Assembly: GCF_988242995.1 (NCBI RefSeq)
Contig: NZ_OZ547043.1
Reading direction: 5' to 3' (one strand)
Length of the DNA stretch: 64,000 nt
Shown: one piece after another, positions 1,729 through 57,795 of the stretch
Layout: every line of letters starts with the position of its first letter
Position numbering within the stretch: the stretch's first letter is position 1
Made by a program: the position numbers and the translations under genes
Notes under the pieces: model-generated
The model's database searches: none
What the model was told of the DNA's origin: nothing
Seen by the model: the letters and a program-made list of their open reading frames with translations, nothing else

Positions 1729-1767
1729 TGCCGGATGCAACGCTTAATAAGGCGTACATCCGGCAAT
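1729..1767. repeat. REP-like palindromic hairpin between convergent yeiL and psuT
   Basis: gccggatg ... catccggc inverted repeat seen in sequence. Confidence 0.5.
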
Positions 1768-1772
1768 GAAAC

Positions 1773-3023
1773 TCAAGCTAAACCAATAAAGAACCCGGCA
1801 ATGGTCGCGCTCATCAGGTTGGAAAGCGTTGCTGCTGCCAGCGCCCGTAAACCAAGCTGGGCGATTTCCGGAGCACGTTTTGGCGAAATAGCCGAAAATG
1901 CCCCAACGACAACACCGATAGAACCAAAGTTAGCAAAACCACAAAGCGCAAAGGAGATAATCGCAATGGTTTTCACTTCCAGCGTGCCGCCCGTTTGCAG
2001 GTATGGGGAGAAACTCAGGTAAGCGACAAATTCGTTAATCGCCAGTTTCTGCCCAATCAGGCTACCCGCAAGGTTGGCATCACTCCAGTCCACACCCATG
2101 ATCCACGCCAGCGGTGCCAGCACATAGCCAAAAATACTTTCCAGAGAGGCATTGGCGAAACCAAACCAGCCGCCAATTCCGCCGATAATGCCGTTGATCA
2201 GCGCAATAATTGCGACAAACGCCATTACCACCGTCGCTACACCAGCGGCGATTTTCAACCCGGTCATTGCCCCTGTAGCGGCGGCTTCAATAATGCTTTT
2301 TGGCGGCGTTTCGCTGAACGACAGATTTTCAAATGTGACCTGCGAAGGCTCGGTTGCCGGGCTAAGAATACGTGCAAACAAAATACCACCAGGGATCGCC
2401 ATCAGCGATGCCGCTAACAGGTAGTCAATTGGTACGCCCATTCCGGCATAACCAATCATCATCGAACCGGCAATGGACGCCATCCCGCTACAAATTGCCG
2501 TAAATAGCTCGTTGCGATTCATGCGATCGATAAACGGTTTTACGATCGCCGGGATCTCATTTTGCCCGAGGAAAATAGTGGTAACCGCAACAAAAGATTC
2601 GATTTTGCTGATGTTGAGGGCTTTCTGAAAAATACTGCCAAGAATGCGGATTAGCAGCCCCATCACGCCAATGTAGTACAGCAGGCTGATGAGCGCAGTG
2701 ACGAAGATAATCGCCGGGAGTACGCGAAAGGCGAAGATAAAGCCCGCGCCATCAAACAGGACATCCATTTTCGGCCCGACCAATGAACCAAAAATAAAGG
2801 CACTACCGGCATCACTGTAAGACATCACTTTATGAACGCCTAATGCCGCCTGCTCTACCGCCCATTTTCCTGGTGGAAAATAGAGCATGATGCCGCCAAT
2901 GGCGATTTGTAGCAGCAGCGCGGCTCCAACCGTGCGCAAACTGATGCTCTTTTTATTCACTGACAACAAAAATGCTATTGCCAGTAACACCACCATCCCC
3001 ACAACACTTCTCATTATATCCAT
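1773..3023 (-). CDS. psuT: Pseudouridine/nucleoside transporter (NupC family)
   Basis: 416-aa ORF, multi-pass hydrophobic, synteny with psuG/psuK. Confidence 0.85.
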   Translation of the reverse strand: MDIMRSVVGMVVLLAIAFLLSVNKKSISLRTVGAALLLQIAIGGIMLYFPPGKWAVEQAALGVHKVMSYSDAGSAFIFGSLVGPKMDVLFDGAGFIFAFRVLPAIIFVTALISLLYYIGVMGLLIRILGSIFQKALNISKIESFVAVTTIFLGQNEIPAIVKPFIDRMNRNELFTAICSGMASIAGSMMIGYAGMGVPIDYLLAASLMAIPGGILFARILSPATEPSQVTFENLSFSETPPKSIIEAAATGAMTGLKIAAGVATVVMAFVAIIALINGIIGGIGGWFGFANASLESIFGYVLAPLAWIMGVDWSDANLAGSLIGQKLAINEFVAYLSFSPYLQTGGTLEVKTIAIISFALCGFANFGSIGVVVGAFSAISPKRAPEIAQLGLRALAAATLSNLMSATIAGFFIGLA

Positions 3024-3116
3024 AATGATTTTCCCTTCATGCCAGTAAACCCGGCGTCAGCGCCAGGTTTTGGTATGTATGATCAGTACGGGCGACGGCT
3101 TTCTGCCCGTCAGAAA

Positions 3117-41023: not shown

Positions 41024-43615
41024 TCAGAACGACCAGACCACACCCGCCTGAGTATTCCACGGTGATTCTACCCCTGCGCCATTGCCATAACTGACTGACA
41101 AATGACCGCTTAACGTCGGGGTAAACGATGACCTTATCCCAGCCTGATAAACGCCACGGGTTCCAGCCACATCATTATTAAATTTGCCATCGTCATTAAC
41201 TTTCACCTGGTTAGAATCGGCGTATTCCTGACGCACGGCGGCTTTCAGCCAGGGTTCCAGCGTCGTACCGTTTTGCAGGTCCATGTGATAGCTTACCGCC
41301 GTTCCCGCTTCAGCGCGTAATATCCGGGTATTTCCCACATCCGCGCGCATGCCGTTTGATAACGTGTAGTCCTGACCATCTGTGGTAAAGCCGGTAAAGG
41401 CCAGATAGGGTCTAACACTCCACAATCCGTCAACCCAACGGAACCCGCTCTCAACATGAGCACCCGCGCCGTTACTATTGTAATCGCCAAACGCTGTTGC
41501 CCCATTACTCATCTTGCCATGGATGGTGTTGGCAAAACGGTCAACTTTCACCACCCCATCAACATAGGCACCGTTCTGATGCTCCCAACCGGCATAAGCC
41601 CCCAGGGTGTAGCTATCGACATTGCCTTTGCCGCCGCGATCAAAACCAATATCAGAATGAGAGTAACCAAAGAACAAGCCGCGAATTGTACTGCTTTCTT
41701 CACGGGAGAAACGGCTATCGATACCGAGCGTCAGCCCCGTCAATGTTTGCTCAAAGCCAGCTCCCGCATCAGTGGTCACGTTGTTGCGGGTGTTAATTGC
41801 CGAACTCCACATCGCCGTATCGTAATTAACGCCTTTTACGCTACCAAGACGCTCACGCACGGTGTCCAGTTCTGCATCAAATACCAGCGGTTGTGCTGCC
41901 GCCATATTCAGCATATCAGTGGTTGAAGGGGTAATTTGCGCGCGATTCTCTGCGAGGCTCCAGCTATGGTTGCCATTATCCAGCAAGGTATATTCATACG
42001 TACCGATATCAACAACGCCTCCGGCATTGCCCAACGTAAATGCAGCATCACCGCCGCCCGTTGTTACCAGTGTAAGGCTATCACCTGCTGCCGGGCTGGC
42101 ACCGGTGTCCGTAACGAATATTTTGAAATCACCTGTTGCCTGACCGGTGACGTTGAGCTGATCGCTCTGATGATTAGCCATATCGGTACGCATATAAAAA
42201 TTGCCGTTTCCCGATAGGGTATTGGTGGTCAACGTAGTGAAATTTTCCGCACTTGCCGTCACAGATGAACGAGTCACTGGCTCAGCCATCATAATCACAT
42301 TTGCGCCAGACATCGCAAGGTTGGCTAAGTTGAGGCGAGTGTTTTGGTTCGTCGTAGTGATATCGGCAATGATGGTCCATGCGCTATTTTCGAGCGAAAC
42401 ATCCGCTTTGCTGGTATCCACGGCTCCATGCGTTCTAAAAGAAGCGCCCTCAGAAACCACTACCTTACCCACCAACATAGCGGGTGCATAATTTATTTGC
42501 GGCTTCATGACCTCAAGAATGCCATCATTCCCTCTGACTGAAACGTTAACCATCGTGCCAGCCCAGACATTAGCGCGGCCATTGTTGATAACCATATTTT
42601 CAGAGATGGCTTTAGAGGAATACGTTATACTTCCATTCTGATCTGATCGACCGAGATCATATACCGCATTTGCCTGCACTCTCGTACCAGTATCCTTTCC
42701 CAGCGATTGCATAGTGGCATGCTCATCAAGGATAGTGTCAATGGCCTGCGTGTCCTCCATAACAATAAGCCCGGAACCATCATCCAGCTCATAATTTTTT
42801 GACACGCCATCTTTTATACTAAATTGGCCTTTACTGTTTGTACCACTCACTTCCAGCGCATTCGTTGAGACAATTAATTTTCCGCCTGCTTTTTTATCAA
42901 CGCCAGTTGCAGTCCCGCCATCCATAACCTCCAGTAAGCCGCCACTATCCACAGTGGTATTATAAGCGAAGTCATTTTCTTCAACTCGCAAACTTCCGCC
43001 GTTTTCCAACAGCATATTATTAGCAATACCATCCTTGATATCGAACTGACCGAGACGGTTTGTTCCGAATACCTCCATGGCCCGGGTGGTTGTTTTAATC
43101 GCACCGCCTGCTTTCTGATCTACCGCAAATGCTAATCCCCCCTCTTTAACCTCCAGTAATCCTCCCTTTTCGATAGCGGCAAAGACGGTAATCCCATCTT
43201 TTTCAATAATTAAGCGCCCGCCTTTAATGGTAGTATCATTCGCTGCGCCATAAACCTGTAGCACACCATTATTGAGGGTAGTCTGGTTTGCCGCGCCACC
43301 CATTTGAACAATTTGATAACCATCATTTAATACTGAGTATTCTGCGGTGCCATTCATTTCAATGTACTGATACCCGCCGTTAATTTCAGTATTACTACTT
43401 ATACCAAATTCTTTAATATGCTGTTCTCCGCCAGGATTGATTTTCGTATTATTGGCGGTCCCATAAACCAGCTGGATATCTTTTTCCAGGACAACACCAT
43501 CAACTGTCTCACCATACTCAACTGTTGATGCCAATGCTATGGGTGAATATAACGCTGTAGCCACCAGAACAGATATTGCGGAACGACAAAGAGAAACAGA
43601 ACCAGATTGATGCAT
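41024..43615 (-). CDS. yejO: Autotransporter adhesin YejO, apparently intact
   Basis: 863-aa ORF; N-terminal signal-like segment; repetitive passenger; C-terminus ...AGVVWSF typical of autotransporter beta-barrel. Confidence 0.8.
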   Translation of the reverse strand: MHQSGSVSLCRSAISVLVATALYSPIALASTVEYGETVDGVVLEKDIQLVYGTANNTKINPGGEQHIKEFGISSNTEINGGYQYIEMNGTAEYSVLNDGYQIVQMGGAANQTTLNNGVLQVYGAANDTTIKGGRLIIEKDGITVFAAIEKGGLLEVKEGGLAFAVDQKAGGAIKTTTRAMEVFGTNRLGQFDIKDGIANNMLLENGGSLRVEENDFAYNTTVDSGGLLEVMDGGTATGVDKKAGGKLIVSTNALEVSGTNSKGQFSIKDGVSKNYELDDGSGLIVMEDTQAIDTILDEHATMQSLGKDTGTRVQANAVYDLGRSDQNGSITYSSKAISENMVINNGRANVWAGTMVNVSVRGNDGILEVMKPQINYAPAMLVGKVVVSEGASFRTHGAVDTSKADVSLENSAWTIIADITTTNQNTRLNLANLAMSGANVIMMAEPVTRSSVTASAENFTTLTTNTLSGNGNFYMRTDMANHQSDQLNVTGQATGDFKIFVTDTGASPAAGDSLTLVTTGGGDAAFTLGNAGGVVDIGTYEYTLLDNGNHSWSLAENRAQITPSTTDMLNMAAAQPLVFDAELDTVRERLGSVKGVNYDTAMWSSAINTRNNVTTDAGAGFEQTLTGLTLGIDSRFSREESSTIRGLFFGYSHSDIGFDRGGKGNVDSYTLGAYAGWEHQNGAYVDGVVKVDRFANTIHGKMSNGATAFGDYNSNGAGAHVESGFRWVDGLWSVRPYLAFTGFTTDGQDYTLSNGMRADVGNTRILRAEAGTAVSYHMDLQNGTTLEPWLKAAVRQEYADSNQVKVNDDGKFNNDVAGTRGVYQAGIRSSFTPTLSGHLSVSYGNGAGVESPWNTQAGVVWSF

Positions 43616-43934
43616 TGAGCTTTCATCCTATGAAATTAATTGCTGTTAAAAGCATTGGGTAAAGAAAATACCCATAGCTCCATACCCGGAGTCAGTTTTT
43701 AAAAACTGTTTAAAGAAATGCACAAGTATTGTGATTGATTTTTTAGTTGTTTTTCTTGATGAGAAGCTGATGCAAAATTCCGTCTTTATAATGAAAATGA
43801 TGCCAAAGCGAACGACAAGGTTGTAGTTTTCACTACATGTCCATACATAAAATGGGGTAACATTCACGTGCCTGGTAGCGTTACCAACGCTACGCTCAAA
43901 CATAATGATTCTAATAAAACCTCAGGAGACTACT

Positions 43935-44582
43935 ATGCCTGAAGCAACGCCTTTTCAGGTGATGATTGTGGATGATCATCCACTTATGCGACGCGGTGTT
44001 CGTCAGTTACTGGAGCTTGATCCTGGCTTTGAAGTGGTCGCCGAAGCGGGCGACGGCGCGAGCGCGATCGATCTGGCGAATAGACTGGATATCGACGTGA
44101 TCTTGCTGGATCTCAATATGAAAGGTATGAGTGGCCTGGATACCCTCAATGCCTTGCGCAGGGATGGCGTTACCGCGCAAATTATTATCCTGACTGTATC
44201 AGATGCCTCCAGCGATGTCTTTGCGCTGATAGACGCAGGCGCAGACGGTTATCTGTTGAAAGATAGCGACCCGGAAGTGTTGCTGGAAGCGATTCGTGCC
44301 GGAGCGAAAGGCAGCAAAGTCTTTAGCGAACGCGTCAATCAGTACTTACGTGAACGTGAAATGTTTGGCGCGGAAGAAGATCCCTTCAGCGTGCTGACGG
44401 AGCGCGAGCTGGATGTTCTGCACGAGCTGGCACAGGGGCTGTCAAATAAACAGATTGCCTCGGTGTTGAATATTTCCGAGCAGACAGTAAAAGTACACAT
44501 TCGCAATCTGCTGCGTAAACTCAATGTCCGCTCACGCGTGGCGGCCACCATTCTGTTCCTGCAACAACGCGGGGCACAATAA
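43935..44582 (+). CDS. narP: Nitrate/nitrite response regulator NarP
   Basis: Internal Met MPEATPFQVMIVDDHPLMRRG gives the recalled 215-aa protein; receiver plus LuxR-type HTH. Confidence 0.9.
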   Translation: MPEATPFQVMIVDDHPLMRRGVRQLLELDPGFEVVAEAGDGASAIDLANRLDIDVILLDLNMKGMSGLDTLNALRRDGVTAQIIILTVSDASSDVFALIDAGADGYLLKDSDPEVLLEAIRAGAKGSKVFSERVNQYLREREMFGAEEDPFSVLTERELDVLHELAQGLSNKQIASVLNISEQTVKVHIRNLLRKLNVRSRVAATILFLQQRGAQ

Positions 44583-44616
44583 AAATAGCCCGATGGCATC
44601 ACCATCGGGCCTCTTT

Positions 44617-45669
44617 TTATTTACTCTCCTGCGGCGACAAATGTTGCATCGCCTGCGCGATACTACGTTCAATCACTGCACGGCGAGTATCGTTGGCAGG
44701 TAAGAGTTTCAACATCATCTCCCACGCGGCAACCGCTTCGCCAAATCGCTGCTGCTCAAAGGCATTAAACGCATACATGCTTAACACACGGATATTGCTA
44801 TGGTCCGTTCTCACCAACTGGCGTAGCAGTTCACCACCGAGGCGGTTGTCGTTGGGATCAGATGAACGTGTCAACGCTTCAGCGTATCCGAGCGCCGCAT
44901 CACTGTTCTTCGGATCGAGGCGATATGCAGTAGCGTATGCATCGGTGGCAATACTGGCGTTACCCAGCGCCATGCCAACGCGGCCCAACATAATCCAGCC
45001 TTCTATATCTCCCGGATTTTTTTGCAGTTGAGTACGCATCCCCAGCGCCAGGCGCGACATCTCTTCTTCGTTGAGCGGATCGGCTTTCGGATCCAGCGCC
45101 CTGTCCAGTAACGCCGGAGCCTGTGCCGTGGCCTGCTGCCAGATTTTCACCTGCTGATAATTGCCCGTCTGGTAGTAGCTGACGCCAGCCACAATTAACG
45201 CCACCACAATACCCGGCAGATAAACAATATATCCGGCACGCTTACCTTCCGGCACGCTTTGTTCAGGAAACGCGTCCGGCACCACGCGTACCCGACGCCG
45301 CGAGCGGGCGTATATGACCCAACCGCCAATGCCAATAGCCACTACCGGAAGCACCCACAGCAGCATGGTCAGCGGCGTTAACGGCGGATCGTAAGTGACG
45401 AAGTTGCCGTAACGCGCCACCATATAATCGACAATCTCTTTTTTACTTTTACCTTCCTGCATCAGTTCATACACTTTCTGGCGCAGGTCGGTGGCAATCA
45501 TCGAGTTGGAATCGGCAATGCTGTTGTTCTGGCATTTCGGGCAGCGTAGTTCTTCAGTGAGTTGCCGGAACTGCTGCTCCTGCGCTTCATCCTTAAACTG
45601 CAACACGTCGATGGTCGCCAGCGCTGAGCCGGAGATCATCAGCATCAGCACGCCCAATAAAAACCTCAT
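44617..45669 (-). CDS. ccmH: Cytochrome c-type biogenesis protein CcmH
   Basis: 350-aa ORF with LRCPKCQN motif and TPR-like C-terminus; synteny. Confidence 0.9.
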   Translation of the reverse strand: MRFLLGVLMLMISGSALATIDVLQFKDEAQEQQFRQLTEELRCPKCQNNSIADSNSMIATDLRQKVYELMQEGKSKKEIVDYMVARYGNFVTYDPPLTPLTMLLWVLPVVAIGIGGWVIYARSRRRVRVVPDAFPEQSVPEGKRAGYIVYLPGIVVALIVAGVSYYQTGNYQQVKIWQQATAQAPALLDRALDPKADPLNEEEMSRLALGMRTQLQKNPGDIEGWIMLGRVGMALGNASIATDAYATAYRLDPKNSDAALGYAEALTRSSDPNDNRLGGELLRQLVRTDHSNIRVLSMYAFNAFEQQRFGEAVAAWEMMLKLLPANDTRRAVIERSIAQAMQHLSPQESK

Positions 45670-46223
45670 TGTGCGGCCTCCTTACTGTATTTCTCCCACA
45701 GCGGCTTGATCTCTTCTTCCCAGACGCGAGGATTGAGATCGCCCGCATGGCGATAGCGAATGATGCCGTTGCCGTCGATGAGGAACGTTTCTGGCGCGCC
45801 ATAGACACCGAGATCCAGTCCTAACATGCCGTCGCCATCAAACAGGCTTAGTGCGTAAGGATTGCCCAGCTCTTTCAGCCAGCTGATTGCCTTCTGGCGA
45901 TCGTCTTTATAGTTCATGCCGACCACGCGGATGCCCTGCGCAGAAAGCTGATTCAGATATTGATGTTCCGCACGGCAGGTCGGACACCAGGTCGCCCAGA
46001 CGTTAAGCAGCACTGGTTTGCCCTGAGTCAGCACATCCGCCTGATAAAACTGCCCCGGATTGTCCAGTGATTCGAGGCGAAACTTCGGCACCGGCTTGCC
46101 AATGAGCGCCGATTCCAGATTGGTCGGATCATCCCCTTCGGCATTACGCGCCAGCTGCCACAGTAGCGCCGCGGCAATCGCCAGGAAGATAATCAACGGA
46201 ATTAACAATACTTTGCGCTTCAT
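45666..46223 (-). CDS. ccmG: Thiol:disulfide interchange protein CcmG (DsbE)
   Basis: 185-aa ORF with WCPTC motif. Confidence 0.9.
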   Translation of the reverse strand: MKRKVLLIPLIIFLAIAAALLWQLARNAEGDDPTNLESALIGKPVPKFRLESLDNPGQFYQADVLTQGKPVLLNVWATWCPTCRAEHQYLNQLSAQGIRVVGMNYKDDRQKAISWLKELGNPYALSLFDGDGMLGLDLGVYGAPETFLIDGNGIIRYRHAGDLNPRVWEEEIKPLWEKYSKEAAQ

Positions 46224-48163
46224 ACAGCCTCCGGCGCAGTTTTTTGCGGACTCACGCGCTTACGATAGCGAGGATCAAACAGACACAGCAGTCCGCCCAA
46301 CGCCATCATCAGCCCGCCCGCCCAAATCCAGCGAACAAACGGTTTGTAGTAAAGACGCACAGCCCACGCGCCGTTTTCCAGCTCTTCACCGAGCGCGGCG
46401 TACAGGTCACGCGTGATGCCACCGTCAATCGCCGCTTCGGTCATCATCGACCCGGCAGTGTTGTAATAACGTTTTTCCGCATACAGCACTGTTTCCGGCT
46501 TGCCATCGCGCGTTACGCCGATAGTCGCCACACCGCCACGCCAGTTCGGACCAGTCACCTCTTTGACATCACGGAAAGTGAAGCGATATTCATGAATATC
46601 GACGCTATCGCCGGACTTCATGCGCACATCACGCTCAACGCTATAGTTCTGACTAAAAGCAATGCCAACAATTGTCACTGCCAGCCCCAGGTGAGCCGCC
46701 ACCATTCCCCAATAACTGAAGGTGGTTTTCGTACCGCGTGAAATACGCAGCGCAGCTTCCGCAATTGCCAGCACCGCAATCCAGCAGGCCATTGCCAGGC
46801 CGAGCACCGTCATCGCCACAACTTTGCTTTCGAACAGCCACGGCAACAGCAGAGACAGCACCAGCGTAGAGATAAAGGCGAAAATCAATAAATTGCGGAT
46901 CTTACGTGGGCGATCGCGCCCCCAGCGCACCAGAGGACCGACACCAAGCAGTAGCGCAAACGGCACCATCAGCCAGGTAAACATGGTGTTGAAGAACGGT
47001 TCGCCAATCGAAATACTGCCCAGTCCCAGTTGCTTGTGCACCAGCGGCAGCAACGTCCCCAGCAACACCACCAGCATCGCGGCGACCAGCAAAACGTTGT
47101 TCGCTAACAGCAAAGATTCCCGCGACCACAGTGCATTGTTTACGCGTGAGCGAACTTTGTGTCCACGCGCGGCAAAAAGCAGCAGCGAACCGCCAATCAC
47201 CAGCACCATAAAGGCGAGGATAAACATACCGCGTGCCGGATCAGACGCAAACGCGTGTACCGATACCAGTACGCCGGAACGCACCAGGAAAGTCCCCAGC
47301 AGACACAACGAGAAGGCACTGATTGCCAGCAGTAATGTCCACGCTTTGAAGCTGGCGCGTTGTTCAGTGACCGCCAGTGAGTGCATCAGCGCAGTCCCCA
47401 CCAGCCACGGCATAAACGAGGCGTTTTCTACCGGATCCCAGAACCACCAGCCACCCCAGCCGAGTTCGTAATAGGCCCATGCGGAACCAAGCACAATGCC
47501 GAGCGTCAGGAAAATCCACGCTGCCAGCGTCCACGGACGAGTAAAACGCGCATAAGTGCTGTCCAGACGCCCACTCAACAAAGAAGCAATGGCGAAAGCA
47601 AACGCCACCGAGAAACCGACGTACCCCATATAGAGCAGAGGCGGATGGAAGATCAGCCCCGGATCCTGCAACAGCGGGTTAAGATCGCGCCCTTCAATCG
47701 GGAAATTCGGCAGCGTGCGTGAGAATGGGTTAGAGGTAAATAGAATGAACAGCAAAAAGCCGACACTGACCATCCCCATTATCGCCAGTACGCGGGCCAC
47801 AATATCCAGCGGAATACGCTGACTAAAAATCGCCACCGCAAAGGTCCAGCCGCTCATCAGCAGCACCCACAGCAGCAGTGAGCCTTCATGTGCGCCCCAG
47901 GTAGCCGCCACGCGATACCACACCGGAAGCTGGGTATTGGAGTTGCTGGCAACATAGGTGACGGTAAAGTCGTTGACCACGAAGGCATTGACCAGTACCA
48001 GAAATGCGCCAGCCACAGACATAAACAGCAGCCAGGCAAACAAGCGGGAAGACGCCATCATGCGCGCATCTCCGCGCGCTACGCCCCATAGCGGATACAC
48101 GGACAGCAGCAGCGCAATTCCTAGCGCCAGGCACAGCAGCCCGTTACCAATTTCCGGCATCAT
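46220..48163 (-). CDS. ccmF: Cytochrome c heme lyase subunit CcmF
   Basis: 647-aa polytopic ORF; synteny. Confidence 0.9.
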
Positions 48164-48639
48164 GATGCTGGGTCCTTATAAACACTCGCCGGGCGACGGT
48201 GGTTAGCTTCCATCGCTTTCTCAACTTCTGGCGGCGTGTAGTTTTCATCATGTTTCGCCAGCACTTCTTTCGCGAGGATAAGATTGCCTTTTTCCAGCTC
48301 GCCCTGCACCACAACGCCCTGCCCTTCACGGAACAGATCCGGCAAAATGCCTTCGTAAGAAACATCCACTGAGCCTTCAGCATCGTAAATGGTGAAGGTC
48401 ACTTTCAGCGAATTGGGATCGCGCTGCACGCTACCCGGCATCACCATCCCGCCAACGCGCAGACGCTGACCGACTTCCGGCATCTGCTGAGTTTCACGCT
48501 TGCCGTAGAGAATTTCCCCCGGCGTATAAAAGAGATCGATATTCGAGCGCAGCGCATACAGCACCAGACCGATGGTCAGCGCCAAACCTGCCAACACAGC
48601 ACAGGCAATCCACAAGCGGTTTTTACGGCGAATATTCAT
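48160..48639 (-). CDS. ccmE: Heme chaperone CcmE
   Basis: 159-aa ORF; synteny. Confidence 0.9.
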
Positions 48640-48845
48640 GCAGCCTCCTGCTGTTGCGCAGCACGTAAACGCGCCTCACGCGCCCGCTGTTGCGCCACAC
48701 CACGCAGAATTGCGCGATGCTGCATCACCGAGTGCACGACCAAAACCACCAGCGGAATAACGGTCATCACCACCGCCAGCCAGACAAAAAAGGCGTAACC
48801 GCCCATTGCGAAAAATTCATTCCAGGAAGCAAATGCAGGGGTCAT
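48636..48845 (-). CDS. ccmD: Heme exporter protein CcmD
   Basis: 69-aa ORF; synteny. Confidence 0.85.
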
Positions 48846-49579
48846 TTACGGCCTCTTTTCAGTATCAGTTCACTCACCCACGGACGGCGTTTTTCCATCA
48901 GCAAAATTAAATTACGCATCCGCATCAGCGTCAGCGTGGCAGACAGCAGCAAGAAGCCAAAAATCGACCAGCGCAGCGGCGAACGCATCGCCGGATCGAT
49001 ACTTTGCTGCATTCGCGTTGATCCCTGATGCAGGGTGTTCCACCACTCCACGGAGTAATGAATAATCGGCAGATTCACCACGCCAATCAGCACCAGGATA
49101 CCTGCCGCACGGCCCGCCAGACGGCGGTCGTCGAAGGCGTGCCACAGGGCAATTACACCAACATACAGAAACAGCAGCACCAGTTCAGAAGTCAGGCGTG
49201 CGTCCCATACCCACCAAGTGCCCCACATCGGTTTTCCCCATGCAGAGCCGGTAACCAGGGCAATAAAGGTAAACACGGCACCAATGGGGGCCATCGCCGC
49301 CACCGCCAGGTTGGCCATTTTCATCTGCCAGACAAGGCCAATAAACGCCGCCACCGCCATTGATGCATAAATGCCCATCGACCAGATCGCCGCAGGCACA
49401 TGCAGGTAGATAATGCGGTAGCTATTTCCCTGCTGATAATCAGCCGGAGCAAAGCCGAATCCCCAGATCCAGCCAACGGTAAGCACGACCACACTGGCAA
49501 TTGCCAGCCACGGTATAAACCAGCCACAGATTTGATACAGCCGTGGTGGGATCGCCAGTTGATGCAGTGTTTTCCACAT
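48842..49579 (-). CDS. ccmC: Heme exporter protein CcmC
   Basis: Internal Met MWKTLHQLAIPPRLYQ gives the recalled 245-aa protein. Confidence 0.85.
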   Translation of the reverse strand: MWKTLHQLAIPPRLYQICGWFIPWLAIASVVVLTVGWIWGFGFAPADYQQGNSYRIIYLHVPAAIWSMGIYASMAVAAFIGLVWQMKMANLAVAAMAPIGAVFTFIALVTGSAWGKPMWGTWWVWDARLTSELVLLFLYVGVIALWHAFDDRRLAGRAAGILVLIGVVNLPIIHYSVEWWNTLHQGSTRMQQSIDPAMRSPLRWSIFGFLLLSATLTLMRMRNLILLMEKRRPWVSELILKRGRK

Positions 49580-49620
49580 AGTTTCGATACCAGACTCGAA
49601 CAAAAATCAGTAATCCAGCG

Positions 49621-50283
49621 TTATTGAATGCTGATTCGTAACGCTGCCGCCGTCGCAAAAGGACTTAATGTCGCGGTGCCTGCCAGCAACGCGCCTAAAA
49701 TTGCCAGATACCCGTCAACGGGCAAATGCATGGAAGCCGCGTCCATCGCGGCGGTGGCAAAGATGAGTAATGGGATAGTCAGCGGTAACACCAGTATGCT
49801 GAGCAGCACACCACCGCGCTTAAGTCCCACTGTCAGCGCCACGCCCGGTGCACCGAGAAAGCCAAGCGTAGGCGTTCCCAGCAGCAGCGTCAGCGCCATC
49901 ACTTGCCAGCCATAAACATCCATTCCCAGTAGCATTGCTACCAGTGGCGAAAGGATGAGTAACGGCAGACCGGTTACCATCCAGTGCGCCATCACCTTCG
50001 CCAGCACAACGGCGGGCAAGGGTAACGGCAACAACATCAATTGTTCAAGACTGCCGTCCTGCAAATCGTCACGGAACAGTCGTTCCAGCGCCAGCAAGGA
50101 TGAAAGCAGCGCAGCAACCCAGATAATGCCCGGTGCAATACGCGCCAGCAGTTGCGGCTCCGGACCGATACTGAGCGGAAAAAGGGTAATGACAATCAGG
50201 AAGAACCACAGCGGGTTGGCGATTTCGGCACTATGGCGAAACGCTACGCGCAGCTCAAGACGGAAAATGCGCCAGAACATCAT
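49621..50283 (-). CDS. ccmB: Heme exporter permease CcmB
   Basis: 220-aa ORF; synteny. Confidence 0.9.
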
Positions 50284-50903
50284 GCGGCCCTCGTTTGCGT
50301 CAGTGAAATGCGGCGAATTTTACTTTCAGCAACGTTGAGCGGCTGGTGGGTAGTCAGAATCACAATCCCCCCCTGCTCCGTATGCTGCGCCATACGCTGG
50401 GTCAGACGATCGACGCCGTTAACGTCAATCGCGGTAAAAGGCTCGTCGAGGATCCATAACGTGGCACGGGTCAGCCACAGACGCGCTAAAGCGACGCGGC
50501 GTTGTTGCCCGGCAGAAAGTTGATTTACCGGAATATCTTCGAATCCGGCAAGCCCGGCCTGCGCCAGGGCTTCCAGACATTGTGCGGTATCGCCATCGCG
50601 ATGATAAAAGTGCAGATTTTCTAACGCCGTCAGCCGGGTTTTGATCCCCGGCTGATGGCCTATCCATAACAGGTTTTGATGGTAGCTGTCGCGTACCTGA
50701 TGCAAGGGCTGCCCTTGCCAGAGAACGTCTCCCGCATCAGGGCGAGACAACCCCGTCAGCAAACGGAGAAGCGTTGTCTTCCCCGCGCCGTTGCTACCGG
50801 TGATTTGTACCCACTCTCCTGCGTTCAGCGTAAATGACAAGCCACTAAATAAGGTTCGTTCATCCCGCTCGCAAAGTAACTCTCTGGCTTCAAGCATACC
50901 CAC
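50280..50903 (-). CDS. ccmA: Heme exporter ATP-binding protein CcmA
   Basis: 207-aa ORF with Walker [10 protein letters not shown]. Confidence 0.9.
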
Positions 50904-50915
50904 GCAATAACCCTG

Positions 50916-51518
50916 TTAAAAACCTGGCTCGACTTCGCGCATATCGGGCAGCTTGTGCGCTATCCCTTTATGGCAATCAATACAGGTTTGCCCATCTTTC
51001 ACCGCCTGGTCATGCATCTTCGCGGCAACCGATTTCTGGGCGGTTGTATCCATATACTCGAAGTTGTGACAGTTACGGCACTCCTGCGAGTTATTGTCCT
51101 TCATGCGCCGCCACTCATTCTGTGCCATCGTCAGGCGATGAGCTTCAAATTTCTGCGGCGTGTCAATAACGCCAAAAATTTTACCATACAGCTCTTTACT
51201 TGCTTTGAGCTTGCGTATCATCTTCGGCACAAACTCGTGCGGAACGTGACAATCCGGACAGGTCGCACGGACGCCGCTACGGTTGTTGTAGTGCACGGAA
51301 TCCATGTATTCCTGATACACCGTGTTACGCATTTCGTGGCAGCTAATGCAGAACTCTTCGGTATTGGCTTTTTCCATCCCGGTGTTAAAGCCGCCCCAGA
51401 AGACGATGCCGCCAACAAAGCCGATCAACAGCAGCGTCCCCAGCGCCAGACGGCTGGGGGTACGCCACCATTTCCACAGGCGCTTAATCAGACCAGGCTT
51501 ACGGTCAGAATTTCCCAT
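50916..51518 (-). CDS. napC: Tetraheme cytochrome c NapC
   Basis: 200-aa ORF with four CxxCH motifs. Confidence 0.9.
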   Translation of the reverse strand: MGNSDRKPGLIKRLWKWWRTPSRLALGTLLLIGFVGGIVFWGGFNTGMEKANTEEFCISCHEMRNTVYQEYMDSVHYNNRSGVRATCPDCHVPHEFVPKMIRKLKASKELYGKIFGVIDTPQKFEAHRLTMAQNEWRRMKDNNSQECRNCHNFEYMDTTAQKSVAAKMHDQAVKDGQTCIDCHKGIAHKLPDMREVEPGF

Positions 51519-51527
51519 AATAACCTC

Positions 51528-51977
51528 TTATTTCCCGTAACCTTTTGACGGGGTAAAGGTATTCCCCACGATTGGCGCGGTATCAGCCTGCGGCACGTGA
51601 CATTGCAGACAGAAGTAACGACGTGGAGCCACTTCCGCGCCCACTTTGCCGTCGCTGTCCATAAAGTGAGTAGGACTGATGCGCGGCGCGCCAGTGGTGC
51701 GATAGCTTTCGACACCGTGGCACTGCAAGCAGCGGTTGGTATTGGTCGTTACCTGATAACCTTCAACGCTATGCGGGATCATTGGCGGCTGATTCACATA
51801 GTTCAGCGGCATCCGATCCTGCTCTTTTGGCATCCGAATGGCCCCTTCCTGCGTCCCGGATACTTCCGGCGACTGGCTAAAATCGACGCCATTAGCCGCC
51901 CAAACCGCGCCGCTCACCACCAGGGCCAGCATCGCCGTCCATTGACACAGCGCTTTCTTCAGGTCATGGCTTTTCAT
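51528..51977 (-). CDS. napB: Diheme cytochrome c NapB
   Basis: Internal Met [13 protein letters not shown] gives the recalled 149-aa protein; two CxxCH motifs. Confidence 0.85.
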   Translation of the reverse strand: MKSHDLKKALCQWTAMLALVVSGAVWAANGVDFSQSPEVSGTQEGAIRMPKEQDRMPLNYVNQPPMIPHSVEGYQVTTNTNRCLQCHGVESYRTTGAPRISPTHFMDSDGKVGAEVAPRRYFCLQCHVPQADTAPIVGNTFTPSKGYGK

Positions 51978-52837
51978 GATTTCGCTCCCGAACTCCATCG
52001 TGTAGTTATTGTAAATACATCCTCAGAACAGACATCCACGCAGCGACCGCACGTCATGCAATCGCGGCTGGTGACCTGCACCGGGCTTTGTTCATCCAGC
52101 ACCGGGGCACGTAGCACATGCGGTTCCGGGCAAACATGAAAACAATCCATACAGCGGTTACATTTCTGCCGATCGGTGGCCGCAACGGTAATGACACCTT
52201 TGCTACCCAGCACGCCATACAGCGCGCCAACCGGACAAATGTGCCCGCACCAGCCGTGTTCAACGACCAGTAGATCAAATAAAAACAGCGCGAGAATAAG
52301 CAGCGCGCCGCTGCCGAATCCCATTACCAGACTGCGCCCCATCAGGGAAACGGGGTTGATCCATTCCCAGATGAGCGTGCCGGTTAAGGCCGATCCCAGC
52401 AGAATGACCACCAACAGCACGTAGCGAATGTGGCGAGGGATCGTCGCAGACTGATTGAGATCAAAGCGCCTGCGTAACCAGTTTGCTAAGTCGGTAATCG
52501 GGTTCAGCGGGCAGACCCAGCTGCAAAATAATCGCTTTCCTGCCAGGGCGTAGAGCACGGTGATAATCACCGCACCGGTCAACGCCACCATGGCAGGCAG
52601 ATGACCGCTGGCAAGACTTTGCAGCGTCATCAGCGGATCGGTCAGCGGAACGGTGTCGAATAACAGGCTACTGCTGTAGTTGCCGTGCAAAATCCACACA
52701 CCAAACCACGGACCGCTCAAAAACATCCCCAGCACGAAGAACTGACAAAGGCGACGTAACACCAGCCAACGGTGACTGCGCCACCAGCCTTTTTTCTCCA
52801 GCGCCTCGCGCCCGGCGTCACGTTTACGATTTGCCAT
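51974..52837 (-). CDS. napH: Ferredoxin-type membrane protein NapH
   Basis: 287-aa ORF; Cys clusters; synteny. Confidence 0.9.
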
Positions 52838-53519
52838 TGTTCCCCTCCAGCCAGCCGAAGCGGTAATGGTGACCTAACTCCCCTTTCGCCAGTGACAGCG
52901 GTAACACCTTGATTGCCGGTTGTTCCAGCACGCACACTTTTTCGCACTTACCGCAGCCGGTACAGGCGTCGCTGTGAACCGTCGGCAGAAAGCGGGCGTG
53001 CTTACCGGTACGCGTGTTGCGCTCCAGCTCCAGGGTGATGGCCTCATCAATTTTCGGGCATTCGCGATAACAAACATCGCAGCGCAGCCCCTGAAAGTTG
53101 AGACAGTTTTCCTGGTCCACCAGCACCGCCAGCCCCATCCGCGCGTCGTCGATCGATTCGATCTCACGATCCAGCGCTCCGCTCGGGCACACTTTGGCGC
53201 ACGGAATGTCCTCACACATTTCGCAAGGAATATCCCGTGCGACAAAATATGGCGTGCCCGCCGACAGACCAGAGGCCAGCGTCGCCAGTTTTAAGGTGTC
53301 GTAAGGGCACGCCTGAACACACTGACCGCAACGCACACAGGCACTGGCAAAGGCGTTCTCGTTTATGGCTCCGGGCGGGCGCAACCGCACGCCAGATGCG
53401 CGTGCGGTTTGCTGTTGTAACCCCAGCGCCACACCCACGGCAGCCAGCCCGCCAGCTGTGCGAACGACATCGCGCAGAAAGCGGCGGCGACCATTTTGAG
53501 GTTTCGCTGACCGGGACAT
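52824..53519 (-). CDS. napG: Ferredoxin-type protein NapG
   Basis: 231-aa ORF with Tat-like signal and 4Fe-4S CxxCxxCxxxCP motifs. Confidence 0.9.
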
Positions 53520-53525
53520 AATGGC

Positions 53526-56012
53526 TTACACCTTCTCCAGTTTGACCGCGCACTTCTTGAAGTCCGTCTCTTTCGAGAGCGGATCGGTCGCATCCAGCGT
53601 CAGTTTGTTAACCAGCTGTGCGGCGTCGAAGAACGGCATGTACACCAGGCCCTGCGGCGGACGGTTACGACCGCGCGTTTCGACAATCGAGATCACTTCG
53701 CCACGGCGAGAAACCACTTTCACTTTGTCGCCACGGCGCAGATCGCGCGCTTTCGCATCCAACGGGTGAATAAACAGGACCGCTTCCGGGAAGGCACGGT
53801 GCAGTTCCGGTACACGGCGAGTCATACTGCCGGTATGCCAGTGCTCCAGGACGCGTCCGGTAGAGAGCCACAGGTCGTACTCTTCATCCGGTGCCTCCGC
53901 CGCCGGTTCGAACGGCAGCGCGAAGATCACCGCTTTGCCATCCGGTTTACCGTAGAACTTGTAGCCTTCGCCCGCTTTCACGTACGGGTCGTTACCTTCG
54001 CTGTAACGCCACTGCGTTTCTTTACCGTTCACCACCGGCCAGCGCAGACCGCGCGCTTTGTGGTAGTCATCGAACGGTGCCAGATCGTGACCGTGACCGC
54101 GACCAAACCATGCGTACTCTTCGAATAGCCCTTTTTGCAGATAGAAGCCCAGCTCGCGGGATTCATCGTTCAGCTGATCTTCCGCCAGTTCGGATACCGG
54201 GAATTTGCTCACTTCGGGGGTGGCATACAGCACTTCGTACAGCGTTTTGCCACGCAGTTCCGGTTTCTTCGCCAGCAGATCTTCCGGCCATACTTCTTCA
54301 GTTTTGAAGCGGCGGGAGAACTGGACTAACTGCCAGAGATCCGATCTCGCTTCGCCCGGTGCCTGTACCTGCTGACGCCAGAACTGAGTACGGCGTTCGG
54401 CGTTACCGTAAGCGCCCTCTTTCTCTACCCACATTGCGGTCGGCAGGATCAAGTCGGCGGCCAGCGCACTGACTGTCGGATACGGATCGGAGACGATGAT
54501 GAAGTTGCGCGGATCGCGCCAGCCCGGCATACGCTCTTCATTGATGTTCGGCCCGGCCTGCATGTTGTTGGTACACATGGTCCAGTAAACATTCAGCTTG
54601 CCGTCTTTCAGTGCACGGTCTTGTGCCACCGCGTGCAGACCGATTTTCGCCGGAATGGTGCCGCTCGGGATATTCCACTTCTTCTCGCAGATATCACGGT
54701 GTTTTTCGTTGGTCACCACCATATCCGCAGGCAGACGGTGAGCAAAAGTGCCCACTTCACGCGCAGTACCACACGCGGAAGGCTGCCCGGTCAGGGAGAA
54801 CGGACCGCAACCCGGCTGGGAAATTTTGCCGGTCAGCAGGTGCAGGTTGTAGACCAGGTTGTTGGCCCACACGCCGCGCGTGTGCTGGTTGAAGCCCATC
54901 GTCCAGTAGGAGATGACTTTCTTGTTCGGATCGGCGTACAGCTGCGCCAGTTGTTCTAACTGGTCTTTCGGCACGCCGGTCATTTCAGCGGTTTTTTCCA
55001 GCGTATACTCAGCAACGAAGGCTTTGTAATCTTCAAAGCTCATCGGTTCGGAGGCGTCAGAACCTGGATTCTTCGCTGCTTTTTCCAGCGGATGGGTCGG
55101 ACGTAAACCGTAGCCGATGTCCGTCGCCCCTTTGCGCAGGTTAACGTGTTTACTAAAGAAGTCCTGATTTATCGCATTGTTTTGAATGATATAGTTGGCG
55201 ATGTAGTTCAGGATCACCAGGTCAGATTGCGGCGTAAAGATGATGCCGTTATCCGCCAGCTCGAAGCTACGATGCTGGTAGGTAGAAAGCACCGCCACGG
55301 TGACGTTCTGGTTGGAGAGACGACGGTTAGTGATGCGCGACCAGAGGATCGGGTGCATCTCCGCCATGTTTGCGCCCCACAGCACAAACGCGTCAGCCTG
55401 CTCGATGTCGTCATAGCAGCCCATCGGCTCATCCATACCAAAGGTACGCATAAAGCCAACTACCGCCGACGCCATACAGTGACGCGCGTTCGGGTCGATG
55501 TTGTTCGAACGGAATCCCGCTTTAAACAGCTTGGACGCGGCATAACCTTCCCAGATAGTCCACTGACCAGAACCGAACATACCGATCGATTCTGGCCCTT
55601 TTTCTTTCAGGGCGGTTTTGAATTTCTCTTCCATCACATCGAAGGCCTGATCCCAGGTGATTGGGGTAAACTCGCCTTCTTTGTCATATTTACCGTTTTT
55701 CATACGCAGAAGCGGCTGCGTCAAACGGTCTTTACCGTACATGATTTTGGGCAGGAAATAGCCCTTAATGCAGTTCAGACCACGGTTAACCGGTGCGTCC
55801 GGGTCGCCCTGACAGGCCACCACACGCCCCTGCTGCGTTCCGACCAGAACGCCGCAACCAGTACCGCAGAAACGGCACGGCGCTTTATCCCATTTAATGG
55901 CTTCCTGCTGACCAACAACGGCGCGGGCAACGCCCGGCACGCTGAGACCGGCAGCCGCCGCAGCGGCCGCAACGGCGTTAGCTTTCATAAAGCTACGACG
56001 ACTGAGTTTCAT
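53526..56012 (-). CDS. napA: Periplasmic nitrate reductase catalytic subunit NapA
   Basis: 828-aa ORF with twin-arginine signal SRRSFMK. Confidence 0.9.
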
Positions 56013-56272
56013 GGTGTTTCCTCACCTTGCTCTTCCTGCTGGTGATAAACCAGCGACACCGCCAGCACGCCCTCTACGTTGCGTACTGACTCAATGATTT
56101 GGATCAGCGTTTCGCTGTCTTCTGCTTCCACCACCACAATCAACTGACCGCTCGGCGCGTCGCTGACAGCAACTTCACAGCCGGGAAAGGCGTTCAGTTG
56201 GGTGCTGATGTCTGAAATTCGTTCGCTTTTGGCCTGCACGACCAGGCTGCAAACTTGCCAGTTAGTGTGCAT
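56009..56272 (-). CDS. napD: NapA chaperone NapD
   Basis: 87-aa ORF; synteny. Confidence 0.9.
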
Positions 56273-56756
56273 GGAGATACTCCGCAGTTATGGCTGATAC
56301 CGGACAGCTGGCTGCACATGCTCCACATCCGTTGCAAAGTTGGCTATTAAGTTGCGGCTGGTAGATCCCGGAGAGCGTCGGGCGAAAGATAATTGCCATT
56401 GGCTCACAGCTATCCTGACAGCGGCGGCATTCAACTGACTGATACGCCAGGCACGCGTCCCCAATGGTGAACTGCAAATCCCAGGCCCTGGTGTGGCGCG
56501 GAGAAAATAGCGATTCGGGGCAAGCCTGCGCGCAGGCGTAACAGAAGCTGCACTCGTTATTTTTGAAGTTAACGCTCGGATAGCCGCCCGCGCCGCGTTG
56601 CAGAATGTTGTTTTCACAAGCATTAATACAGGCGTCGCAGCGGGTGCAATGGGTCAGAAAATGAGATTCATCACCGGACCAGGGCGGACGGATACCGTTA
56701 CTGGCTTTGCGCCAGCGACCAGTGAGTATGCCCCGACGGGATGCATCAATCTTCAC
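56262..56756 (-). CDS. napF: Ferredoxin-type protein NapF
   Basis: 164-aa ORF with multiple 4Fe-4S Cys clusters. Confidence 0.9.
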   Translation of the reverse strand: MKIDASRRGILTGRWRKASNGIRPPWSGDESHFLTHCTRCDACINACENNILQRGAGGYPSVNFKNNECSFCYACAQACPESLFSPRHTRAWDLQFTIGDACLAYQSVECRRCQDSCEPMAIIFRPTLSGIYQPQLNSQLCNGCGACAASCPVSAITAEYLHAH

Positions 56757-56869
56757 ATTGACCTTCCATCATTAACGCGCTCTGAAAATTGAGAGCGACC
56801 AAATAAACCGCATAATTAATAAGCCATTTTTATAGCCGCTAAGATATTAAAGGATGTGTCAAAGATGCA

Positions 56870-56885
56870 TACCCCGATCGGGGTA
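56870..56885. promoter_or_regulatory. NarP/NarL 7-2-7 heptamer pair in the napF promoter
   Basis: Perfect palindrome taccccgatcggggta; TACYYMT heptamers in 7-2-7 arrangement upstream of napF. Confidence 0.75.
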
Positions 56886-56890
56886 AAACC

Positions 56891-56904
56891 TGTAGCAGGA
56901 TCAA
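56891..56904. promoter_or_regulatory. Candidate FNR site in the napF promoter
   Basis: TTGATcctgCTACA on the napF strand, centred 20 bp upstream of the NarP site centre. Confidence 0.5.
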
Positions 56905-57161
56905 AAGAGTGGCGGGAAGCGTGGCAAAAACGGGCTTTTGCTCACATTTCAAATGGTTATAAACATATTTATATAGCGATTAATTCACCAGAAATATTTC
57001 TGTTGGTTTGCTCTCTCATCAGAATTTAACACTAAAAGAGCAGGTAAAATTATCTGAATGTTCTTTAAGTTATTCATAAAGCAAATTAATAAATCTGATG
57101 AATATGTTAACCTTCAGCGACATCATCGGTGAAAACCTATAAATGAAGAAGGAAAGCAAAA

Positions 57162-57650
57162 ATGAAGACCATTCTACCTGCAGTATTGTTTGCCGCTTTC
57201 GCCACCACCTCCGCCTGGGCGGCAGAGAGCGTCCAGCCACTGGAAAAAATCGCGCCTTATCCGCAAGCTGAAAAAGGCATGAAGCGTCAGGTGATTCAGT
57301 TAACCCCGCAAGAAGATGAATCTACCCTGAAAGTAGAACTGTTAATCGGTCAGACGCTGGAAGTCGATTGCAATTTGCATCGTCTCGGCGGGAAGCTGGA
57401 AAGCAAAACGCTGGAAGGCTGGGGCTATGATTATTATGTCTTTGATAAAGTCAGTTCCCCGGTTTCGACGATGATGGCCTGCCCGGATGGCAAGAAAGAG
57501 AAGAAATTTGTCACAGCGTATTTGGGTGATGCCGGAATGCTGCGTTACAACAGCAAGCTGCCGATCGTGGTGTATACGCCAGACAATGTGGATGTGAAAT
57601 ACCGCATCTGGAAGGCGGAAGAGAAAATTGACAACGCGGTAGTTCGCTAA
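57162..57650 (+). CDS. eco: Ecotin (periplasmic serine protease inhibitor)
   Basis: 162-aa ORF with signal peptide; sequence recognised. Confidence 0.9.
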
Positions 57651-57669
57651 ACTGCCGTGAAGTGCTCCA

Positions 57670-57795
57670 CCCCGTAGGTCAGATAAGGCGGTTACGCCGC
57701 ATCCGATCTAACGCCCAAGCCGGTTGCCTGATAAGACGCTGGCGCGTCTTATCTGCATACGCCACATCCGGCATACCATGCCGGATGTGGCACAT
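57670..57795. repeat. REP/BIME cluster between eco and mqo
   Basis: Palindromes cctgataagacgctggcgcgtcttatc and gccacatccggcat..atgccggatgtggc. Confidence 0.7.

Follow-up and report, generated by a model that had tools for sequence, protein, structure and literature searches.

Positions 56870-56904 of the 64,000-nucleotide stretch of DNA analyzed here (hereafter, the window) contain a perfect palindrome with a TTGAT motif close by. An initial annotation, made from the letters of the sequence, had read these elements as the NarP/NarL and FNR sites of a napF promoter. The question that this locus raises is whether it is the control region of the napFDAGHBC-ccmABCDEFGH operon of E. coli, and whether that region is in the same state as in E. 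coli K-12. Direct examination established the sequences of the two sites, their spacing, their identity to K-12, their conservation in E. coli and three other genera, and the presence of an intact narP gene.

Identity of the locus

The window is a segment of the E. coli chromosome that is collinear with K-12 MG1655 from approximately 2.254 to 2.310 Mb, and the region 56600-57300 is 100% identical to strain M217 and approximately 98% identical to most strains. Downstream of the two sites lies a 164-aa open reading frame (ORF) on the minus strand at 56262..56756, with a GTG start at 56756. It is followed by ORFs of 87 aa and then 828 aa, and the RefSeq annotation of matching E. coli records identifies the three as napF, napD, and napA. 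These belong to a complete napFDAGHBC-ccmABCDEFGH cluster (44617..56756, minus strand) located downstream of the promoter and ending with ccmH (44617-45669, minus strand). The initial annotation had also placed narP nearby, and the response regulator gene is indeed found at 43935-44582 on the plus strand, where it is intact and encodes 215 aa, 214 of which are identical to those of K-12. The gene order around the promoter is eco-yojO-napFDAGHBC-ccmA-H-narP, and the eco-yojO-napF flanks are the same as in K-12.

When the napF-eco intergenic region was aligned with that of K-12 MG1655, the two were identical base for base, with 0 differences from about -126 (numbered from the napF start discussed below) to the napF start codon. 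The K-12 difference closest to the promoter is an A-to-G SNP at 56964, inside the spacer of a ModE palindrome. Further upstream towards eco there are a few SNPs and short indels, while the segment that holds the FNR site, the NarP site, and the core promoter is unchanged. Almost certainly, then, this locus is the region that controls the napFDAGHBC-ccmABCDEFGH operon of E. coli, and its state is that of K-12. It is the well-studied, textbook promoter of napF, and as such it is already known and ordinary. Since K-12 is the strain in which the napF promoter was dissected and the sequence is identical, the published K-12 results apply directly.

The window also departs from K-12 elsewhere: it has an island at proL, its yejO is intact, and there are several indels. 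The approximately 8.9 kb at 31980-40909 are absent from K-12 and directly follow the tRNA-Pro(GGG) gene proL (31901-31977). They encode a tyrosine integrase, an Ash-family protein, DUF4222, a DUF927 protein that we take to be primase-like, SSB, a ProQ/FinO protein, and PerC, and a C4 antisense RNA (Rfam) lies within them at 34388-34475. This insert resembles a P4-like satellite or integrative element. Nothing interrupts the autotransporter gene yejO, at about 40910-44400; the K-12 copy has an IS5 insertion. Relative to K-12, about 150 bp are missing at 44586-44610 (between narP and ccmH), as are about 350-450 bp at 57647-57753 (between eco and mqo), and these stretches are probably REP/BIME-type intergenic repeats present only in K-12. 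Two further observations are a secondary match of 1757-3041 to the K-12 nupX region at 80% identity, which is nucleoside-transporter paralogy (psuT/nupX), and an ordinary L25 ribosomal protein leader (Rfam) upstream of rplY at 28160-28185 on the plus strand.

The activator sites and the core promoter

The sequence TACCCCGATCGGGGTA occupies 56870-56885, where the plus strand reads taccccgatcggggta. It is a perfect 16-bp palindrome that parses as the 7-2-7 site TACCCCG-AT-CGGGGTA, with two inverted heptamers whose arms are perfectly complementary and lie exactly 2 bp apart. Against the NarL/NarP consensus TACYYMT, both heptamers match at all positions but the seventh (6 of 7), where G replaces T, for a total of 12/14. 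Its center, at 56877.5, would be -44.5 if transcription starts at 56833. The napF gene is one of four with a documented NarL/NarP 7-2-7 site (PMC2718512), and its position has been given as -40 to -49 relative to the napF start (PMC4549865). In K-12, FNR and phospho-NarP induce napF, phospho-NarL represses it by blocking NarP binding, expression is at its maximum at low nitrate, and a napF fragment spanning -85..+19 is enough for NarP-dependent control (PMC9262595).

The FNR site is TTGAT-CCTG-CTACA (TTGATCCTGCTACA, read on the napF strand from 56904 to 56891), and its center at 56897.5 would correspond to -64.5 from the same start. Compared with TTGAT-N4-ATCAA it scores 7/10, with a perfect 5' half and a 3' half (CTACA) that matches at 2 of 5 positions, and it is absent from the results of a 2-mismatch consensus search of the window. 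Center to center, the NarP and FNR sites are spaced exactly 20 bp apart; together they occupy the interval from 114 to 148 bp upstream of the napF start codon (GTG, 56756). Thus, the coordinates, strand, and spacing given in the initial annotation for the heptamer pair and for the FNR-like site upstream of it were all correct on reading both strands.

We compared the occurrence of these elements in the window with chance expectation, using first-order Markov simulations of the window for the 7-2-7 repeats. The palindromic 16-mer is unique in the window, even allowing 3 mismatches. Perfect 7-2-7 inverted repeats number 12 (4.7 ± 2.2 expected) and perfect 16-bp palindromes number 7 (1.4 expected), while matches of at least 12/14 to TACYYMT-NN-AKRRGTA number 2 (2.5 expected). 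Likewise, FNR-like sites of at least 7/10, that is, as good as the one at napF, number 320 (245 expected). A 7-2-7 site of at least 12/14 paired with an FNR site of at least 7/10 at a 20-bp center spacing occurs once in the window, at this locus. This paired arrangement is expected 0.017 times per 64-kb window and was seen in 1.6% of 1000 simulated windows. The statistics are weak for the single elements; the paired arrangement is more than chance. The decisive evidence is nevertheless the identity to K-12 and the cross-species conservation described below, not the statistics. The other six perfect 16-bp palindromes are at 26203, 28638, 33464, 43693, 43968, and 46585; the one at 43693 (CAGTTTTTAAAAACTG) is just upstream of narP, and the one at 43968 (GTGGATGATCATCCAC) is in the narP start region.

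The predicted center of the FNR site corresponds to 2303638.5 in NC_000913.3. Taking the offset between U00096.2 and NC_000913.3 to be approximately 1976 bp, as we presume, the center would be at about 2301662 in the U00096.2 numbering. A K-12 FNR ChIP-seq peak assigned to napF/yojO has, in that numbering, a summit at 2301675, or at 2301669 according to a second table (PMC3688515). The summit therefore lies approximately 6-12 bp from the predicted center, a distance that uses the presumed offset, which the 'within proL' row of the same ChIP-seq table bounds to 1915-1991. For napF, a supplementary table on expression lists the value 0.37 in a column of unconfirmed meaning (PMC3688515).

The initial annotation had held that the two sites reproduce the known napF promoter arrangement and imply a start near 56833. 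The arrangement is supported by the K-12 identity from about -126 and by the literature position of the 7-2-7 site. Darwin & Stewart in 1995, Darwin et al. in 1998, and Stewart et al. in 2003 are said to have placed FNR at -64.5 and NarP/NarL at -44.5 at napF, and the 2003 work reportedly described two overlapping napF promoters with starts approximately 3 nt apart. From arithmetic on the site centers and the K-12 mapping, the P1 start would be the A at 56833 on the minus strand (2303574 in NC_000913.3), giving a 77-nt 5' UTR. On the basis of the 2003 study, TATCTT is probably the -10 of P1 and TAATAT that of P2. On this assignment, the -10 of P1, the main, FNR/NarP-dependent promoter, would lie at 56841..56846 on the minus strand (-13..-8 from 56833), and that of the overlapping upstream promoter P2 at 56844..56849, offset by 3 bp, with a start that would be near 56836. 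A start at 56833 is consistent with TATCTT at -13..-8, with the ModE palindrome at -133.5, and with the FNR ChIP-seq summit. A simple sigma-70 scan found no consensus sigma-70 promoter on the napF strand, as expected of an activator-dependent promoter that lacks a -35 element.

Between the NarP site and the -10 is a block, TGCATCTTTGACACATCCTTTAA (56847-56869, minus strand, -36..-14), in which 16 of 23 positions are invariant in the species comparison described below, which exceeds the needs of a spacer. The nap operon is activated by ModE and repressed by IscR (PMC8139620), and this block may hold the reported IscR site or contacts with RNA polymerase or an activator. By eye, an IscR type-2 motif over the -10 region matches at about 6 of 9 defining positions of the consensus. 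We also considered an NsrR half-site, because ATGCATCTT, which lies within this block beside the palindrome, resembles AANATGCATTT, and rejected it: 2-mismatch matches in the window number 73 against 93 expected, which is at or below chance.

Two further elements lie upstream of the FNR site. The first is a ModE palindrome, GCTATATA-N6-TTTATAAC, at 56956..56977 on the minus strand, whose predicted center is -133.5 and whose spacer carries the one SNP relative to K-12. McNicholas & Gunsalus in 2002 reportedly located the ModE site at this same -133.5 position. The G at 56964 is common to strain EcPF16 and E. albertii, and the A of K-12 may be the derived state. The second is a Crp-like block, AAATGTGAGCAAAAGCCCGTTT, with a TGTGA half-site, at 56928..56949 on the minus strand. 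It is centered near -105.5, its mean identity is 0.86, and it hardly varies among E. coli, E. albertii, and Citrobacter. Stewart et al. 2009 are credited, in a paper that cites them, with a Crp site lying upstream of those for Fnr and NarP, and the block at about -105.5 is a candidate for it. The second overlapping -10, the ModE and Crp sites, and an ORF, yojO, that spans both activator sites are elements that the initial annotation did not list.

Conservation and competing explanations

Of 5426 complete E. coli genomes, 5421 have the napF control region. Among these 5421, the 35-bp block at 56870-56904 is exact in 4965 (92%), 455 show a single mismatch, and one genome carries a divergent version. 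Among the variants sampled, O157 strains have TACCTCG, in which heptamer position 5 is still Y, and EcPF16 has CCACA in the weak 3' FNR half. Strain MFDS1006657 carries a foreign-looking allele in which the sequence beyond about -75 is heavily diverged and the FNR spacer and 3' half are changed to CCGA-CAACA; the palindrome and TTGAT are nonetheless exact. The exactness of the block in 92% of E. coli indicates that the same circuit has probably been under sustained selection.

To extend the comparison across genera, we used a protein-anchored scan of representative genomes, which yielded 7 useful orthologous napF loci among the matches listed. These came from E. coli (representative L009), E. 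albertii, four Citrobacter, and Leclercia adecarboxylata, and 270 bp upstream of napF were aligned and scored per element. No Salmonella napF locus was among the matches listed, and NapF is absent in Salmonella according to a review (PMC8139620). In the 7-species alignment there are no indels between -71 and -8. TTGAT is invariant at 5 of 5 positions, GGGGTA and TATCTT at 6 of 6 each, and TACCCC at 5 of 6, as is TAATAT, which reads AAATAT in Citrobacter and Leclercia. The FNR 3' half is invariant at 3 of 5 positions (CTACA, CAACA, or CTACT) and the NarP center at 2 of 4. The corresponding values are 1 of 7 for the interval -7..-1 and 1 of 33 for the sequence upstream of the ModE site. Heptamer positions 1-6 are kept across genera and the variation falls at position 7; with O157 strains included, the departures from the perfect palindrome are at position 5 or 7. 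The conserved unit therefore appears to be TACCYC-N4-GGGGTA together with TTGAT at a fixed spacing. Neither perfect symmetry nor the 3' FNR half would belong to that unit, and the perfect palindrome would be a feature of most E. coli and not of the family.

The palindrome might instead be conserved as an RNA hairpin or terminator, or as yojO coding sequence, on either strand. The palindrome does fold, with a 6-bp GC-rich stem (-10.2 and -10.7 kcal/mol, z -2.6 and -2.2). However, a T-run after the hairpin is absent on both strands, and a terminator scan makes no call. In addition, two Citrobacter have TACCCCAATTGGGGTA, a symmetric double change at position 7 of both arms (G..C to A..T). This fits a site for a dimeric protein and is not predicted by a hairpin, because the bases concerned would be in the loop, where RNA needs no symmetry. 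As for coding sequence, RefSeq annotates the small ORF yojO at 56865..57029 on the plus strand, overlapping both the NarP and FNR sites. Aimed into it is a sigma-70-like promoter, TTGAGA-16-CATAAT (56789-56816, plus strand, 10/12 match), which lies within the napF 5' UTR and, facing away from napF, is directed through the activator sites. Shimada et al. 2014 list these hexamers as an RpoD-holoenzyme 'constitutive promoter' for yojO, bound by RpoD in vitro. Yet in E. albertii the ORF is truncated, with a length of 31 aa; nothing comparable was detected in Citrobacter, in Leclercia, or in the E. coli representative L009, while the sites are still conserved there. Moreover, the O157 variant is non-synonymous in the yojO frame (Gly-to-Glu) and stays inside the NarL consensus. 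Given that the ORF is not conserved outside E. coli and that the O157 change is non-synonymous, coding constraint cannot explain the conservation. The gene is probably not a conserved protein-coding gene but an annotation artefact over conserved regulatory DNA, and we regard conservation as RNA structure or coding sequence as very improbable.

Another explanation grants that the cis elements are intact and supposes that altered fnr, narQ, or narX/narL genes change the regulation, such that the site acts mainly via NarL or not at all. Of the regulators, narP alone lies within the window, and the window differs from K-12 at the proL island, at yejO, and at several indels. Against this, NarP differs from that of K-12 at 1 of 215 residues, and 92% of E. 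coli genomes carry exactly this promoter block. The fnr and nar regulators are core E. coli genes. We therefore give such altered regulation very little credence. The initial annotation had concluded that anaerobic and nitrate control of the operon is intact; this stands for the cis elements and for narP and goes too far for the circuit as a whole, since fnr, narQ, and narXL are outside the 64-kb window.

The least credible explanation is that the palindrome and TTGAT arose by chance in an AT-rich intergenic region and have no regulatory role. It can draw on the abundance of perfect repeats, palindromes, and FNR-like sites in the window and on the unremarkable number of 12/14 matches. Against it stand the rarity of the joint arrangement, core positions and spacing that are invariant over four genera while the flanks diverge, the identity to the experimentally dissected K-12 promoter, and the K-12 FNR ChIP-seq peak on the site; the conservation and the K-12 evidence effectively refute it.

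A separate idea is that the opposite-strand promoter drives an antisense 'yojO' transcript through the NarP and FNR sites and thereby contributes to napF control. We consider this unlikely. If it were true, control of napF would also involve transcriptional interference, or bound activators acting as roadblocks. By eye, the TTGAGA and CATAAT hexamers are only weakly kept in Citrobacter. In a weaker variant of this idea, Dam methylation at GATC sites may make binding methylation-sensitive. GATC sites occur in both activator sites, at 56876-56879 (the center of the NarP palindrome) and at 56899-56902 (within TTGATC). The C after TTGAT is invariant in the 7 species, and Leclercia and three of the four Citrobacter no longer have the GATC at the NarP center (they read AATT, GATT, or CATT).

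Proposed regulation and related promoters

Returning to the reading of the locus as a canonical napF promoter, we propose the following mechanism, in which protein binding, activation, competition, and the start site are transferred from the literature on the identical K-12 sequence. During anaerobiosis, an FNR dimer would bind TTGATCCTGCTACA, centered at -64.5. When nitrate or nitrite is present, NarQ would phosphorylate NarP, and a NarP dimer would bind the 7-2-7 site centered at -44.5. The NarP site is two helical turns downstream of the FNR site, which would put both proteins on the same face of the DNA. Together, FNR and NarP would recruit RNA polymerase to a promoter without a usable -35 element, with TATCTT as its -10 and a start near 56833. 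At high nitrate, phospho-NarL would dominate and bind the same 7-2-7 site, where, as a poor activator, it would compete with NarP, and this competition would confine nap expression to low nitrate. The ModE (-133.5) and Crp (about -105) sites would contribute molybdate and carbon-source inputs, respectively. With a canonical promoter and an intact narP, the genes for periplasmic nitrate reductase and cytochrome c maturation should, as in K-12, be induced under anaerobic conditions when nitrate is low. That the strain has both is of little importance beyond annotation.

The closest known system is the K-12 napF (aeg-46.5) control region itself, which has the same 7-2-7 site, FNR site, 20-bp spacing, overlapping -10s, ModE palindrome, and Crp-like block. 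This region is said to have been studied by Choe & Reznikoff in 1993, Darwin & Stewart in 1995, Darwin et al. in 1998, Stewart et al. in 2003 and 2009, and McNicholas & Gunsalus in 2002. At the E. coli nrfA and nirB promoters, FNR binds at -41.5 and the 7-2-7 site lies further upstream. The order is reversed at napF, where the response-regulator site is proximal (-44.5) and the FNR site is distal (-64.5), and NarL at napF antagonizes NarP rather than activating. The yeaR promoter of E. coli is FNR-independent. Both nrfA and nirB likewise combine an FNR site with a NarL/NarP 7-2-7 site and are grouped among the documented 7-2-7 sites (PMC2718512). The 7-2-7 site of yeaR is at -38 to -47, at nearly the same distance from the start as that of napF, and the NarL C-terminal domain alone fully activates napF and partially activates yeaR (PMC4549865). 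The napF promoter of Haemophilus influenzae is a further relative (Stewart & Bledsoe 2005, as described in a citing paper). Closer to E. coli, the napF promoters of E. albertii, Citrobacter, and Leclercia adecarboxylata, the last of which is without the ModE and Crp-like blocks, all have TTGAT, TACCYC-N4-GGGGTA, and TATCTT at unchanged spacing.
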